Assembly: GCA_021776095.1 (NCBI GenBank)
Contig: JAJFGO010000092.1
Span: forward strand, 3,188 to 67,187
Direction of reading: 5' to 3'
Origin: Kiloniellaceae bacterium
GTDB taxonomy: Bacteria > Pseudomonadota > Alphaproteobacteria > Kiloniellales > J153
Length of the DNA stretch: 64,000 nucleotides
Shown: one piece after another, positions 3,782 to 49,774 of the stretch
Layout of the letters: every line of letters begins with the position of its first letter
Position numbering within the stretch: the stretch's first letter is position 1
The notes under the pieces: generated by a model
What the model was told of the DNA's origin: nothing
Database searches by the model: none
What the model saw: only the letters and a program-made list of their open reading frames with translations
Program-made: the position numbers and the translations under genes

Positions 3782-4414
3782 ATGGCCTACATCGATTGGA
3801 TGATCAAAGGACCGAAGATCGCGTCGTGCAACTGCGACTACGGCTGCCCGTGCGAGTTCAACGCACCGCCCACGCACGACGTTTGCGAAGGGCTCGAGGC
3901 CATGCAGATCGACGAGGGGTACTTCGGCGACATCCGACTCGAGGGCTTGCGCTTCGCCGCCGCGTATCGCTGGCCGGGCCCCGTGCACGAGGGCGGCGGC
4001 ATCGTCCAGGGCTTCATCGACGAACGTGCCGACGAGGCGCAGCGCGACGCCCTGATCCAAATCCTGTCCGGCCTGGAGCAGGAGCCGACCACGGCCTTCA
4101 ACATTTACGGCTCGACCATCGAGACGGAGTACGACCCGGTCTTCGGGCCGATCGACTTCGCGTACGACATGGCGGCGCGCACCGGGCATTTCAGTGTCCC
4201 CGGCCATATCGAGATGACGCTCGAACCGATCCGCAACCCGGTGACGGGAAAGCCGCACCGGGCGATCATCGGCCTGCCCGAAGGCTTCGAGTTCCGCGAG
4301 GCCGAAATGGCGAGCGGCACCTTCGCCGGGACGGGCGAGATCAAGTTCGAGAACAGCGGGTGCTACGGCTTTTTGACCGTGGTCGGTTACGGCCCGCACG
4401 GGGTTATCGGCTGA
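3782..4414 (+). CDS. DUF1326 family protein (Cys-rich, unknown function)
   Basis: N-terminal CNCDYGCPCEF cysteine cluster and overall length match my recollection of DUF1326. An SD (ggaaggag) precedes the ATG. It is followed immediately by a DUF2182 gene, the usual partner. Confidence 0.75.
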   Translation: MAYIDWMIKGPKIASCNCDYGCPCEFNAPPTHDVCEGLEAMQIDEGYFGDIRLEGLRFAAAYRWPGPVHEGGGIVQGFIDERADEAQRDALIQILSGLEQEPTTAFNIYGSTIETEYDPVFGPIDFAYDMAARTGHFSVPGHIEMTLEPIRNPVTGKPHRAIIGLPEGFEFREAEMASGTFAGTGEIKFENSGCYGFLTVVGYGPHGVIG

Positions 4415-41801: not shown

Positions 41802-41912
41802 CCCTTGGAATCGTAGGGTAGATCGACTCCCCGGCGCGGGTGACGCATTGTCGGGCGGGCCGCGGGTCTACATATGTAAACCTCGCGAAACTTGAACGGG
41901 AGGATGAAGGCG

Positions 41913-42365
41913 ATGACGGACGGCAAAAAGGCACGCGCTCTGGGCTTCAACCATGTGGCGCTGGAGGTCGGCGATATCGGCGAGGCGCTGGATTTCTACG
42001 GCCGCCTGTTCGACTTCGAGCTGCAGAGCCAAAGTGAGACCGCGGCCTTTATCTATCTGGGCGATCAGTTCATCAATTTTTCCAAGGGCCGCAAACAAGC
42101 GCCCGACGATGCCCGTCACTTCGGCGTGGTGGTCGACGACAAGGAACAGGTGCGCCGCACCTTAGCGGACATGGGGGTCGAGGTCTTGCCCGGCCACTTC
42201 CTCGATTTCCTCGACCCCTGGGGCAACCGGGTCGAGATCGTGGCCTATGAGAACATCCAGTTCACCAAGGCACCCAATGTGCTGCGCGGCATGGGGCTCG
42301 AGAGCCTGCAAAAAACCCAAAAAGCCCTCGAAGAGCTCGCCGGGCGCGGCATGGCGCCGGAATAG
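41913..42365 (+). CDS. VOC (glyoxalase/bleomycin-resistance/dioxygenase) family protein
   Basis: GFNHVALEVGD... and HFGVVVDD...DPWGNRVEI fit the beta-alpha-beta-beta-beta modules of VOC proteins. ATG 41913 is chosen for its spacing to the SD gggagg (41897-41902). The last ~18 codons lie inside repeat copy A. Confidence 0.75.
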   Translation: MTDGKKARALGFNHVALEVGDIGEALDFYGRLFDFELQSQSETAAFIYLGDQFINFSKGRKQAPDDARHFGVVVDDKEQVRRTLADMGVEVLPGHFLDFLDPWGNRVEIVAYENIQFTKAPNVLRGMGLESLQKTQKALEELAGRGMAPE

Positions 42366-42513
42366 GGCCAGCGCGCTAATGAATTGGGGCGCCGCGGAAC
42401 GGCCTCGTACTTCAACAAGCTCTGCATGAGGACCTCTTCGCGGTAGCAACACCGGAGCTGCGTGTTTCCATCGGCTCAGCACAAGACCTCATCCTGAGCC
42501 TGTCGAAGGATGG
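42311..42513. repeat. repeat copy A (long form) of the dispersed hairpin element
   Basis: It aligns along its length with 43940-44156. Inverted arms at 42401-42434 and 42485-42513 (..CTTCAACAAGCTCTGCATGAGG / CCTCATCCTGAGCCTGTCGAAGG..) are degenerate relative to copies B and C. Confidence 0.8.
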
Positions 42514-42634
42514 GGCTGCCCAGAAAGCTGAGGTAATTGCGCCATAGCAGGGAAGCGGCCATTTCGACCGTTATCCACGATGTCGTGTCGCCCTAGTCGG
42601 CATAAAATAGGTGACACATCGCGCCGAGCCGTGT

Positions 42635-42727
42635 ATGCGAGATGATATGATCCAGCCGTTCGCCGCTTTCTGGTATTTTTTTAGCTATCCGGGCCCACAG
42701 GCGGACGGAGGGAATCGTATGCTCTAA
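42635..42727 (+). CDS. candidate aromatic-rich leader peptide (30 aa; 26 aa if started at ATG 42647)
   Basis: MRDDMIQPFAAFWYFFSYPGPQADGGNRML. Codons 42659-42688 give F-A-A-F-W-Y-F-F-S-Y. TAA at 42725. It lies between a repeat and a terminator, just upstream of DAHP synthase. The SD is weak. Confidence 0.6.
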   Translation: MRDDMIQPFAAFWYFFSYPGPQADGGNRML

Positions 42728-42754
42728 ACTCAGCAGACAAACGAAACCGAACCA

Positions 42755-42782
42755 ACCGCCAGCTCTCTGGCGGTTTTTTGTT
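42755..42782 (+). terminator. intrinsic terminator / attenuator upstream of DAHP synthase
   Basis: ACCGCCAG (42755-62), loop CUCU, CUGGCGGU (42767-74), then UUUUUGUU. It sits 27 nt after the leader stop and 32 nt before the aroG ATG. Confidence 0.75.
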
Positions 42783-42813
42783 GCCGCCGGGAGCCAGACA
42801 CAGGAGCCCGACA

Positions 42814-43875
42814 ATGCAAACCCAGACCGATGACCTGAGAATCCGGGAAATAAGGGAGCTGGTCTCGCCCGAGATCCTTCTGAATGAGCTCCCGCTGACC
42901 CCGGCTGCCGCCGAAACGGTGCGCGCCGCTCGTGCCGCTATCCACCAAATCCTGAACGGACAGGACGATCGCCTGCTTGTGGTGATCGGCCCCTGCTCGA
43001 TCCACGACCCGGAGGCGGCGCTGGACTATGCCCGGCGTCTCGCGGCAATCCGCCGCGATCTAGCGGACACCTTGGAAGTGGTGATGCGGATTTACTTCGC
43101 GAAACCACGAACCACCATAGGCTGGAAGGGCTTGATCAACGATCCGCATCTCGACGGCTCCTACGACATCAATACCGGCCTGGGGACGGCGCGCGAACTG
43201 CTGGCGCAAGTCAACGAACGCGGGGTTCCGGCGGGGTGCGAATTCCTCGACACGACCGTGCCGCAATACATTGCCGACCTGGTCGGATGGGCCGCCATCG
43301 GGGCGCGCACAACAGAAAGTCAGGTTCACCGGGAATTGGCATCCGGTGTTTCCTGTCCCATCGGGTTCAAGAACAGCACATCGGGCGATGTAAAAATCGC
43401 CATCGACGCCGTGCAATCGGCCGCCCATCCGCATCATTTCATGGCCGTGACAAAGAACGGACGCTCGGCCATTGCCGCGACCACCGGCAATGCCGACTGT
43501 CACATCATCCTGCGCGGCGGCGTAACGCCAAATTACGATTCAGCGTCCGTGGACACGGCCTGCAGGGCAGCCGAAGCTTCGGGCCTGCGCGGGATGGTTA
43601 TGATCGATACCAGTCATGCCAACAGCAGGAAAAAGCCCGAGAACCAGCCCCTGGTGGCCGAGGACATCGCCGCGCAAATCGCGGGCGGCGAAGATCGCAT
43701 CATGGGGCTGTTGATCGAAAGCAATCTGGTCGGCGGGCGTCAGGATCTGGACGCGAGGCCGCTAACCTACGGTCAATCGGTGACAGACGGCTGCATCGAC
43801 TGGGGCACCTCGGTTGAGATCCTGCACCGACTTGCCGATGCCGTTACAACACGCCGCCGACTGCGCTCTAGCTGA
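42814..43875 (+). CDS. aroG: 3-deoxy-7-phosphoheptulonate (DAHP) synthase, class I (AroG/AroF/AroH type)
   Basis: Collinear with E. coli AroG/AroH from MQTQTDDLRIREI: DDRLLVVIGPCSIHDP, KPRTTIGWKGLINDP, IGARTTESQVHRELASG, CPIGFKN, HIILRGG, LTYGQSVTDGCI. An SD (caggag) lies 7 nt upstream. Feedback specificity cannot be determined from sequence. Confidence 0.93.
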   Translation: MQTQTDDLRIREIRELVSPEILLNELPLTPAAAETVRAARAAIHQILNGQDDRLLVVIGPCSIHDPEAALDYARRLAAIRRDLADTLEVVMRIYFAKPRTTIGWKGLINDPHLDGSYDINTGLGTARELLAQVNERGVPAGCEFLDTTVPQYIADLVGWAAIGARTTESQVHRELASGVSCPIGFKNSTSGDVKIAIDAVQSAAHPHHFMAVTKNGRSAIAATTGNADCHIILRGGVTPNYDSASVDTACRAAEASGLRGMVMIDTSHANSRKKPENQPLVAEDIAAQIAGGEDRIMGLLIESNLVGGRQDLDARPLTYGQSVTDGCIDWGTSVEILHRLADAVTTRRRLRSS

Positions 43876-43939: not shown

Positions 43940-44156
43940 GAAAAACCGCAAAGAGCCCTCGACAACCTCGCCGGGCGCGGCATGGCGGTGGCGGGAGGCG
44001 CCAGCAATTGGGACCTCGCCGAACGGCCCTCGTGCTTCGACAAGCTCAGCATGAGGACCTCTTCGCGTTAATGGTGCCAGGGCCGCATGTTTCGATGGGC
44101 TCAATATATGAACCTCATCCTGAATATGAACCTCATCCTGAGCTTGTCGAAGGATG
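43940..44156. repeat. repeat copy B (long form) of the dispersed hairpin element
   Basis: Direct repeat of 42311-42513. Inverted arms lie at 44025-44059 and 44128-44156 (GCTTCGACAAGCTCAGCATGAGG / CCTCATCCTGAGCTTGTCGAAGG). It contains a perfect 18-nt tandem duplication at 44106-44141. Confidence 0.8.
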
Positions 44157-44348
44157 GCGTCCGGCACCAAGCCGAGACACTTGCGTCCTGTTCCGGAAAC
44201 TCTCTCTTTAACGGCACCACGTCGCTCGGGTATCTGCGTGACGCTTCGTGACTCCGCGCTTTCATCGTGAAATACCTTGGACTCCTCGTGGCAGCCCCAT
44301 CATGGGCGGCGAATGGCGATACTGCACGGCGGAGAACAGGAGACGACG

Positions 44349-49695: not shown

Positions 49696-49774
49696 CCCTC
49701 GTCCTTCGACAAGCTCAGGATGAGGACGCATGTTCAAGGGATTATCCTCACCCTGAGCTTGTCGAAGGGCGAGG
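49696..49774. repeat. repeat copy C (short form) of the dispersed hairpin element
   Basis: CCCTCGTCCTTCGACAAGCTCAGGATGAGG (49696-49725) and CCTCACCCTGAGCTTGTCGAAGGGCGAGG (49746-49774) are near-perfect inverted arms around a 20-nt loop. It lies in the divergent spacer between the TMADH-like and FAD-oxidase genes. Confidence 0.85.

Follow-up and report, generated by a model that had tools for sequence, protein, structure and literature searches.

A conserved mixed Phe/Tyr/Trp-codon leader, probably a ribosome-mediated attenuator, upstream of DAHP synthase genes in three classes of Proteobacteria

The DNA analysed here, termed the window, is a 64 kilobase (kb) stretch (65% G+C) of contig JAJFGO010000092.1 of a Kiloniellaceae bacterium. 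All coordinates are positions in the window and all features described are on the + strand. The window carries a class-I (AroF/G/H-type) gene for 3-deoxy-D-arabino-heptulosonate 7-phosphate (DAHP) synthase at 42814–43875. The gene is monocistronic, encodes 353 amino acids (TIGR00034 aroFGH match, E = 2.9e-153) and its product catalyses the first committed step of the shikimate pathway. Among named organisms, the closest relatives of the enzyme are in Pelagibius litoralis (86% identity) and Denitrobaculum. Upstream of this gene are a short leader open reading frame (ORF), in which Phe, Trp and Tyr codons are clustered, and, after it, an intrinsic terminator. This feature is real and conserved, is almost certainly a regulatory leader and, as judged from its sequence, very likely functions as a classical ribosome-mediated transcription attenuator that senses charged tRNA-Phe, tRNA-Tyr and tRNA-Trp. 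The trp/pheA-type attenuator proposed in an earlier note on this DNA is supported by mutually exclusive RNA pairings, by conservation, by a specific covariance model, and by covariation of the terminator and of the antiterminator flanks.

The leader ORF at 42647–42727 consists of 26 codons and a TAA stop codon and encodes the peptide MIQPFAAFWYFFSYPGPQADGGNRML. The regulatory codon cluster, at 42659–42688, reads F-A-A-F-W-Y-F-F-S-Y, i.e. 4 Phe, 1 Trp and 2 Tyr codons in a run of ten. Among approximately 107,000 stop-free runs of ten codons in the six frames of the 64 kb, this cluster is the single one with 7 aromatic residues. Six aromatic residues are found in 7 runs, 5 of which overlap the leader site, and the aromatic content of real proteins in the window is approximately 6.7%. 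The earlier note had considered such a cluster improbable by chance, which is borne out by its uniqueness. The 7 aromatic codons read as the note had stated, and the ATG at 42635, the in-frame ATG at 42647 and the TAA at 42725–42727 are all present. However, its choice of ATG 42635 as the start of the leader is probably incorrect, as this codon sits in a putative −10 promoter box. The leader most likely starts at ATG 42647, where the sequence ATG ATC is conserved across alphaproteobacterial loci.

The terminator consists of a 9 base pair (bp) stem (42754–42762 with 42767–42775) with 6 G-C pairs, a CUCU loop (42763–42766) and the U-run UUUUUUGUU (42774–42782), as found with a terminator scan, and displays an energy of −14.7 kcal/mol. 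The stem is one pair longer than the 8 bp described in the earlier note. The 5′ arm, AACCGCCAG, is termed segment 3 and carries a CCGCC core at 42756–42760; the 3′ arm, CUGGCGGUU, is segment 4. Segment 1, CCGUUCGCC (42656–42664), is the 5′ strand of an anti-antiterminator hairpin and pairs with GGCGGACGG (42700–42708) in both the minimum-free-energy and the centroid folds of 42630–42815, where this 1:2 hairpin coexists with the terminator. The hairpin energy is −28.5 kcal/mol (z = −1.96). Segment 2, GGCGGACGGAGGG (42700–42712), can be a partner of either segment 1 or segment 3. In the 2:3 antiterminator, GGCGG (42700–42704) pairs with the CCGCC core, and GG:CC steps at 42707–42708/42752–42753 and 42711–42712/42747–42748, formed with CC..CC boxes at 42747–42753, provide its distal part together with an inner hairpin. 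The fold of 42700–42760 has an energy of −20.4 kcal/mol and z = −3.8, and none of 200 shuffled sequences is as stable. The pairing of segments 1 and 2 noted earlier is therefore found in the minimum-free-energy fold, and the GGCGG:CCGCC antiterminator is real as well, but its description as rather weak is wrong, since the structure is a composite one. The mutually exclusive 1:2, 2:3 and 3:4 pairings that had been drawn by eye do exist.

The leader was compared in 81 loci, which are the window and the best 80 genomic loci encoding DAHP synthase relatives (64–80% identity). A short ORF with 5–8 aromatic residues per ten codons is found in 65 of the 81 loci; it is ATG-initiated and 21–30 codons in length. 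All 65 leader-bearing loci also display a G+C-rich hairpin with a U-run, situated 17–72 nucleotides (nt), mostly 33–44 nt, 5′ of the DAHP synthase start. Carriers in the Alphaproteobacteria are Pelagibius, a Kiloniellaceae bacterium, Hoeflea, Leisingera, Bradyrhizobium, Mesorhizobium, Devosia, Methylosinus and Inquilinus. In the Betaproteobacteria they are Massilia, Duganella, Rugamonas, Janthinobacterium, Noviherbaspirillum, Herminiimonas and Orrella, and in the Gammaproteobacteria, Steroidobacteraceae. Among the alphaproteobacterial leaders, 24 of 25 contain a Trp codon, compared with 13 of 39 others.

A covariance model, R1, could be built from 63 distinct sequences and is specific for the region upstream of DAHP synthase. 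It yields exactly one full-length match per locus, always directly 5′ of the DAHP synthase gene, in 69 of the 81 sources; five of the matched loci (L010, L020, L056, L059 and L072) are outside the training set. In the window there is only one match, at 42647–42782, with a score of 97 bits. The conservation of mini-ORF and terminator predicted for orthologous loci is thus found at 69 of 81 loci by R1 and extends far beyond the Alphaproteobacteria. R1 gives no match in 12 of the 81 sources, all from Alcaligenaceae, Burkholderiaceae or Methylopumilus, one of which (L062) has only 61 nt of upstream sequence. The other loci without a leader according to the model are L029, L034, L036–L038, L048, L049, L052, L058, L061 and L076, where the enzyme is 64–65% identical. 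Partial matches to the 3′ part of R1 are also seen just past the DAHP synthase stop codon, at 4094–4176 in L054, 4088–4160 in L026 and approximately 4169–4306 in L041, L045 and L060. They probably represent terminators of the DAHP synthase gene itself that have similar CCGCC/GGCGG stems.

A metagenome search was performed with the pattern TTTAGC-N(11-17)-GGCGG-N(40-70)-CCGCCAG-NNN-TGGCGG, which sets no condition on the neighbouring gene. At least 120 metagenome stretches match. In 104 of the 120 matches listed, a DAHP synthase homologue starts at most 250 nt downstream on the same strand. Only 107 of the listed matches are evaluable, i.e. 104 of 107 have the DAHP synthase neighbour, and 12 others end too soon on their contig; one of the 120 stretches was not found again by our own regular expression. 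The remaining 3 evaluable matches listed lack an aromatic ORF and are due to chance. A leader containing 5 or more aromatic residues per ten codons is present in 106 of the 112 listed matches that have enough upstream sequence, and these represent 89 distinct peptides. In practice the element is thus associated with DAHP synthase alone, and members of its family are frequent among environmental bacteria. One of the chance matches is a clustered regularly interspaced short palindromic repeat (CRISPR) array at approximately 1040–1370 of L165 (match strand) with the repeat GCATCGCCCGCCAGCAATGGCGGGCGCGGATTGAAAC, which is unrelated to the leader.

Family members share a common layout consisting of a promoter, a leader ORF with the aromatic cluster (usually ending ..UAC UUU AGC), segment 2, a spacer and the terminator. 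The spacer extends 21–58 nt after the leader stop codon and carries a YCC(C) box, which by eye recurs across the family 6–8 nt upstream of CCGCC. Of 63 distinct leaders, 62 contain GGCGG, which is followed by GGAG; the distance from the last aromatic codon to this box is usually 14 or 20 nt. The cores of the two terminator arms, CCGCC in the 5′ arm (63 of 63 sequences) and GGCGG in the 3′ arm, are invariant. Segments 2 and 4 are near-copies and both are able to pair with segment 3. The Bradyrhizobium leader shows the classical 1:2, 2:3, 3:4 logic in its plainest form, as segment 1 is GCCACCAG, segment 3 is GCCGCCAG, and segments 2 and 4 are both CUGGCGGC. The UUU AGC at the end of the cluster (42680–42685 in the window; columns ~54–59 of alignment A1) is conserved at the nucleotide level in most leaders of the three proteobacterial classes, with Ser encoded by AGC and not UCN. 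Neither a pairing partner of UUU AGC nor another reason for its conservation was found.

Segment 2 can be followed through changes of the reading frame. The sequence AGGCGGUGGA is read in three frames, giving peptide ends ..LQAVE*, ..LRRWNSSGYAQ* (three Massilia loci) and ..QGGGVSGRCT* (one Duganella locus). As segment 2 is kept in three reading frames, the constraint acts on the RNA and not on the peptide. In Oxalobacteraceae the leader stop codon directly follows GGCGGUGGAG, and a terminating ribosome therefore covers segment 2. Segment 1 is clade-specific, with CCGUUCGCC in the clade of the window, GCCACCAG in Bradyrhizobium and, by eye, CUUUACCG in Oxalobacteraceae. The 1:2 pairing cannot be expressed as one family-wide structure and was assessed per clade (window clade and Bradyrhizobium); in the window clade, 5 of 6 closely related sequences retain the helix.

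Covariation was assessed on alignment A1 (63 sequences). The terminator shows compensatory changes at two stem positions, A-U in 42 and G-C in 21 sequences at one, and A-U in 52, U-A in 7 and G-C in 1 at the other. In the terminator stem 90.7% of cells are paired, compared with 28–61% when the partners are slid. Changes in the antiterminator are found in its flanks, where one pair is U-A in 33, C-G in 11, U-G in 3 and unpaired in 16 sequences, and another is U-A in 25, A-U in 7, C-G in 1 and unpaired in 30. For the antiterminator 84.5% of cells are paired as against 20–61% when slid, and 0 of 500 shuffles reach the observed covariation score, a statistic that overstates significance because the aligned sequences are related and that is supportive and not a formal proof.

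Putative promoter boxes were derived from an alignment of 24 alphaproteobacterial loci. In the window a −35 box, GTGACA, is predicted at 42611–42616 and a −10 box, TATGCG, at 42634–42639, the latter containing the ATG at 42635. The register (G/A)TGACA, 17 nt, (C)TATNNN, 7 or 8 nt, ATG is kept in most of the 24 loci; Methylosinus shows TTGAC at the equivalent −35 position. Because the −10 box is only 7–8 nt 5′ of the leader ATG, the alphaproteobacterial leader mRNA is probably leaderless or nearly so. A documented leaderless leader mRNA is that of Sinorhizobium meliloti trpL, whose 5′ end is the leader AUG (PMC10117765). The Oxalobacteraceae promoter differs and consists of CTTGCCAA, N17 and TATAGT, with a 5′ untranslated region of approximately 25 nt that carries a GGA box. 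At the family loci, the stretch from the terminator to the DAHP synthase start shows no conserved promoter, an absence deduced from the short distance. With the terminator 17–72 nt from the start codon there is no obvious room for a separate promoter, and thus the DAHP synthase gene can most likely be expressed only by read-through.

The state relevant to a kinetic decision is that of the nascent RNA ending at the terminator 5′ arm, and this was folded for 64 leaders. The antiterminator core is present in 59 of the 64 leaders with a ribosome stalled in the middle of the cluster, compared with 19 in naked RNA and 13 with a ribosome on the stop codon. Equilibrium folding of the leader with masked ribosome footprints was rejected as a test of the switch, as the terminator is always in the fold and switching is not visible. 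The simple ribosome mask also allows a 1:2 helix around the bound ribosome, which is physically implausible.

Taken together, the leaders show the parts of an attenuator, i.e. a leader ORF at the 5′ end of the putative transcript, a cluster of end-product codons, an intrinsic terminator, and exclusive 2:3 and 3:4 pairings. An unstalled ribosome would block 2:3 by way of the 1:2 hairpin in the window, or by a stop codon abutting segment 2 in Oxalobacteraceae. In the proposed mechanism the promoter given above most likely directs transcription from ATG 42647 or from a position just 5′ of it, and the nascent RNA would encode the 26-codon leader with its 7 Phe/Trp/Tyr codons in 10. With an ample supply of charged tRNA-Phe, tRNA-Tyr and tRNA-Trp, the ribosome would pass through the cluster, after which segment 2 would be covered by the ribosome or paired again with segment 1. 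The terminator hairpin and U-run would then form, and transcription would end approximately 35 nt 5′ of the gene. A shortage of any one of these charged tRNAs would cause the ribosome to stall in the cluster and occupy segment 1. The freed segment 2 would pair with the terminator 5′ arm once this is transcribed (GGCGG:CCGCC and the two GG:CC steps), and this antiterminator would block the terminator and let RNA polymerase read into the DAHP synthase gene.

Several points, apart from the relatedness of the aligned sequences, weigh against this mechanism. A complete terminator, when present, is always in the minimum-free-energy fold under any ribosome mask. As it always wins at equilibrium the switch must be kinetic, and the reading depends on folding kinetics; in the E. 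coli trp leader the terminator is likewise favoured at equilibrium. The leader stop codon of the window is located 21 nt past the GGCGG core, too far for a terminating ribosome to cover the core, and therefore the off state must rely on sequestration of segment 2 by the 1:2 hairpin. This 1:2 helix shows only one-sided C-to-U changes (G-C to G-U) in the window clade. The five core pairs of the antiterminator are invariant or nearly so (61–63 of 63) and give no covariation signal, and neither does the terminator core, which is also constant; the flanking pairs of the antiterminator are standard in only 50–75% of sequences. The leader has no Shine-Dalgarno sequence, and its translation hangs on the putative leaderless start. 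There is only one Trp codon in the leader, and sensitivity to Trp may be low. Finally, in the Corynebacterium glutamicum leader discussed below, Tyr availability is reported to be without effect despite a Tyr codon (PMC11802643).

Four other explanations were considered. The leader could be a nascent-peptide sensor of the TnaC type, in which free aromatic amino acids or another ligand cause an aromatic-rich peptide with a conserved Y-F-S core to arrest the ribosome and so work the same RNA switch. Stalling would then depend on the sequence of the peptide and not on how much charged tRNA is available. The Y/F-F-S stretch, with its nucleotide-level conservation of UUU AGC in most leaders of three classes, would suit such a sensor and has no RNA-structural explanation. 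However, F, Y and W residues occur in freely varying order and number, as the 89 distinct peptides among the metagenome matches listed illustrate, and all that is retained is the composition of the cluster and its placement with respect to segment 2. The C-terminal part is fully altered by the frame shifts described above while the RNA sequence is kept. The polarity of a peptide sensor would also be senseless, as an abundant amino acid would switch on a biosynthetic gene. A peptide sensor is thus very unlikely.

It is equally improbable that the ORF is an independent small-protein gene with its own terminator, and that DAHP synthase is transcribed separately or by constitutive leakage without amino acid sensing. 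The peptide is conserved enough for some gene callers to list it as a hypothetical protein. An exact look-up of eight leader peptides in a protein collection found one, annotated in this way, and five representative leader peptides gave no NCBIfam match and no meaningful Pfam match (E ≤ 10). Against a separate gene are the short distance from terminator hairpin to gene start, in which no conserved promoter is seen, and the confinement of the element to DAHP synthase (104 of 107 evaluable among the matches listed, the other 3 being chance). Further, the 3′ half of the peptide tolerates frame changes, and the antiterminator complementarity and its covariation would be purposeless.

An element for protein- or ligand-dependent antitermination (a riboswitch, or a TRAP- or PyrR-like system) that recognises GGCGG..GGAG and CCGCC would make the ORF incidental. 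Cores that are invariant across classes are compatible with a binding site, and such an element might also give a role to the conserved GCCGG box after the terminator, which otherwise lacks an explanation. Yet an incidental ORF would not be expected to keep its in-frame ATG, aromatic cluster and stop codon in 65 of 81 genomic loci and in 106 of 112 listed metagenome loci, with the cluster at a fixed distance from segment 2, usually 14 or 20 nt. There is no Rfam family match, and the invariant boxes are explained by the need of both segments 2 and 4 for segment 3. This possibility is considered very unlikely as well. That the terminator (42754–42782) merely ends the upstream glyoxalase-family gene (41892–42365) and the aromatic ORF is a chance intergenic feature has a negligible probability. 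In its favour, the gene shares the strand of the leader, and from the gene up to 42754 the scan shows no further strong + strand terminator. However, the terminator is 390 nt past the stop codon of the gene, beyond a repeat element and the conserved promoter, this gene is beside DAHP synthase in 0 of 80 other loci, unlike the leader and terminator, and the aromatic cluster is unique among the ~107,000 runs. Comparative data already contradict this reading.

In E. coli, DAHP synthase is controlled by TyrR/TrpR repression together with feedback inhibition. The attenuator proposed here resembles E. coli pheL and trpL in having a leader ORF with codons for the product, 1:2/2:3/3:4 segments, a terminator before the structural gene and a kinetic switch. 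It differs in that the regulated gene is the common-pathway DAHP synthase and not a terminal-branch gene, that the leader mixes Phe, Tyr and Trp codons and does not repeat one codon, and that the alphaproteobacterial leader mRNA appears leaderless. It also resembles none of the Rfam leader families, those for Phe and Trp included, in sequence or by covariance model (E ≤ 10). A search of Rfam 15 gave nothing relevant at E ≤ 10 for window positions 42300–43000 and nothing relevant at E ≤ 1 in eight representative loci.

The closest functional precedent is the aroR leader of C. glutamicum, an aromatic leader with an attenuator before a DAHP synthase gene. This leader (Phe-Tyr-Phe), first noted in PMC4046766, attenuates the aroF operon, and experiments showed that read-through rises under Phe limitation, according to the review PMC11802643, which cites Neshat et al. 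(2014). It is actinobacterial, has an aromatic run of only three codons and contains no Trp codon. Homology with the proteobacterial element is unlikely, and the likeness, as taken from the literature, appears to be functional. In Acholeplasma, the uORFC-13-1 motif is a predicted ORF with Phe codons directly before an intrinsic terminator, found only upstream of DAHP synthase (aroF) (Brewer et al., 2021, PMC8632094). This motif is limited to Acholeplasma (Mollicutes), with 24 representatives, and is U-rich with at least 1 Phe codon and no mixed cluster, i.e. it is an unrelated sequence family. Vibrio aroF-tyrA attenuators are listed on a prediction website (PMC1173090). The earlier note knew of no described family. 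Aromatic leaders before DAHP synthase are known in C. glutamicum and Acholeplasma, and in this respect the statement was too broad, but it holds for the proteobacterial element, of which no description was found in the full-text literature searched, although an earlier account in subscription journals is possible.

Similarity is also seen with S. meliloti trpL/rnTrpL, an alphaproteobacterial ribosome-mediated attenuator whose leaderless mRNA matches the promoter-to-ATG spacing found here. S. meliloti trpL senses Trp only and controls trpE(G). The attenuator RNA and peptide released from it function in trans (PMC6614838, PMC7298713).

The mechanism is thus a textbook one. What is new is the family itself, a widespread mixed Phe/Tyr/Trp attenuator in three proteobacterial classes that is absent from the curated databases checked. 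There is about an even chance of a broader view, in which the leader represents an RNA family that is abundant and has not been described before, a proteobacterial DAHP synthase (aroG-type) leader common to Alpha-, Beta- and Gammaproteobacteria, that reads three charged tRNAs at once at the entry to the shikimate pathway and is leaderless in Alphaproteobacteria. The GCCGG box, the released RNA of approximately 130 nt and the peptide might then add functions, such as a second layer on read-through transcripts or an activity in trans as with rnTrpL/peTrpL.

DAHP synthase sets the carbon flow into all three aromatic amino acids. If the attenuator reading is correct, many soil, plant-associated and aquatic proteobacteria (rhizobia, methanotrophs, Oxalobacteraceae) would control this enzyme through tRNA charging, and one leader would integrate Phe, Tyr and Trp supply. 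The leader would then be a new and easily recognised family for Rfam and for genome annotation pipelines, would account for an unannotated gap of approximately 170 nt before a core metabolic gene, and would be a target for strain engineers who deregulate the shikimate pathway in carrier organisms. The concept of attenuation is left unchanged, and there is the functional precedent in Corynebacterium.

Between the terminator and the DAHP synthase gene of the window are a CCGCCGG box (42784–42790) and the Shine-Dalgarno sequence AGGAG of the gene (42802–42806), 7 nt 5′ of the ATG. GCCGG is invariant in 20 of 20 alphaproteobacterial loci (alignment A4, columns 36–40), and the box is complementary to the terminator 3′ arm over 7 bp in the window and 9 of 10 in Bradyrhizobium. 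Since the box is complementary to the 3′ arm and lies after the terminator, this pairing could form only in read-through transcripts. The RNAalifold consensus around the box shows the terminator only. A role of the CCGCCGG box in gating the Shine-Dalgarno sequence, by alternative pairing with the terminator 3′ arm or the Shine-Dalgarno region, is not supported, as the probability that the latter is unpaired is not consistently different between the two states in 23 alphaproteobacterial loci.

The five flanking proteins of the window were not found in any of the 80 other DAHP synthase loci, and therefore the element moves with the DAHP synthase gene rather than with the genes around it. The entire promoter-leader-DAHP synthase module is flanked by two direct copies of a sequence of approximately 250 nt (42310–42541 and 43941–44185; 81% identical). 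Each copy comprises the final ~45 nt of the glyoxalase-family ORF upstream and a palindromic repeat element with the core CCTCATCCTGAGCnTGTCGAAGGATG. The bracketing direct copies, and the fact that no neighbours are shared with other loci, suggest that the module was inserted or moved via recombination between repeat elements. A further 2 copies of the repeat core are found at 49700–49771.

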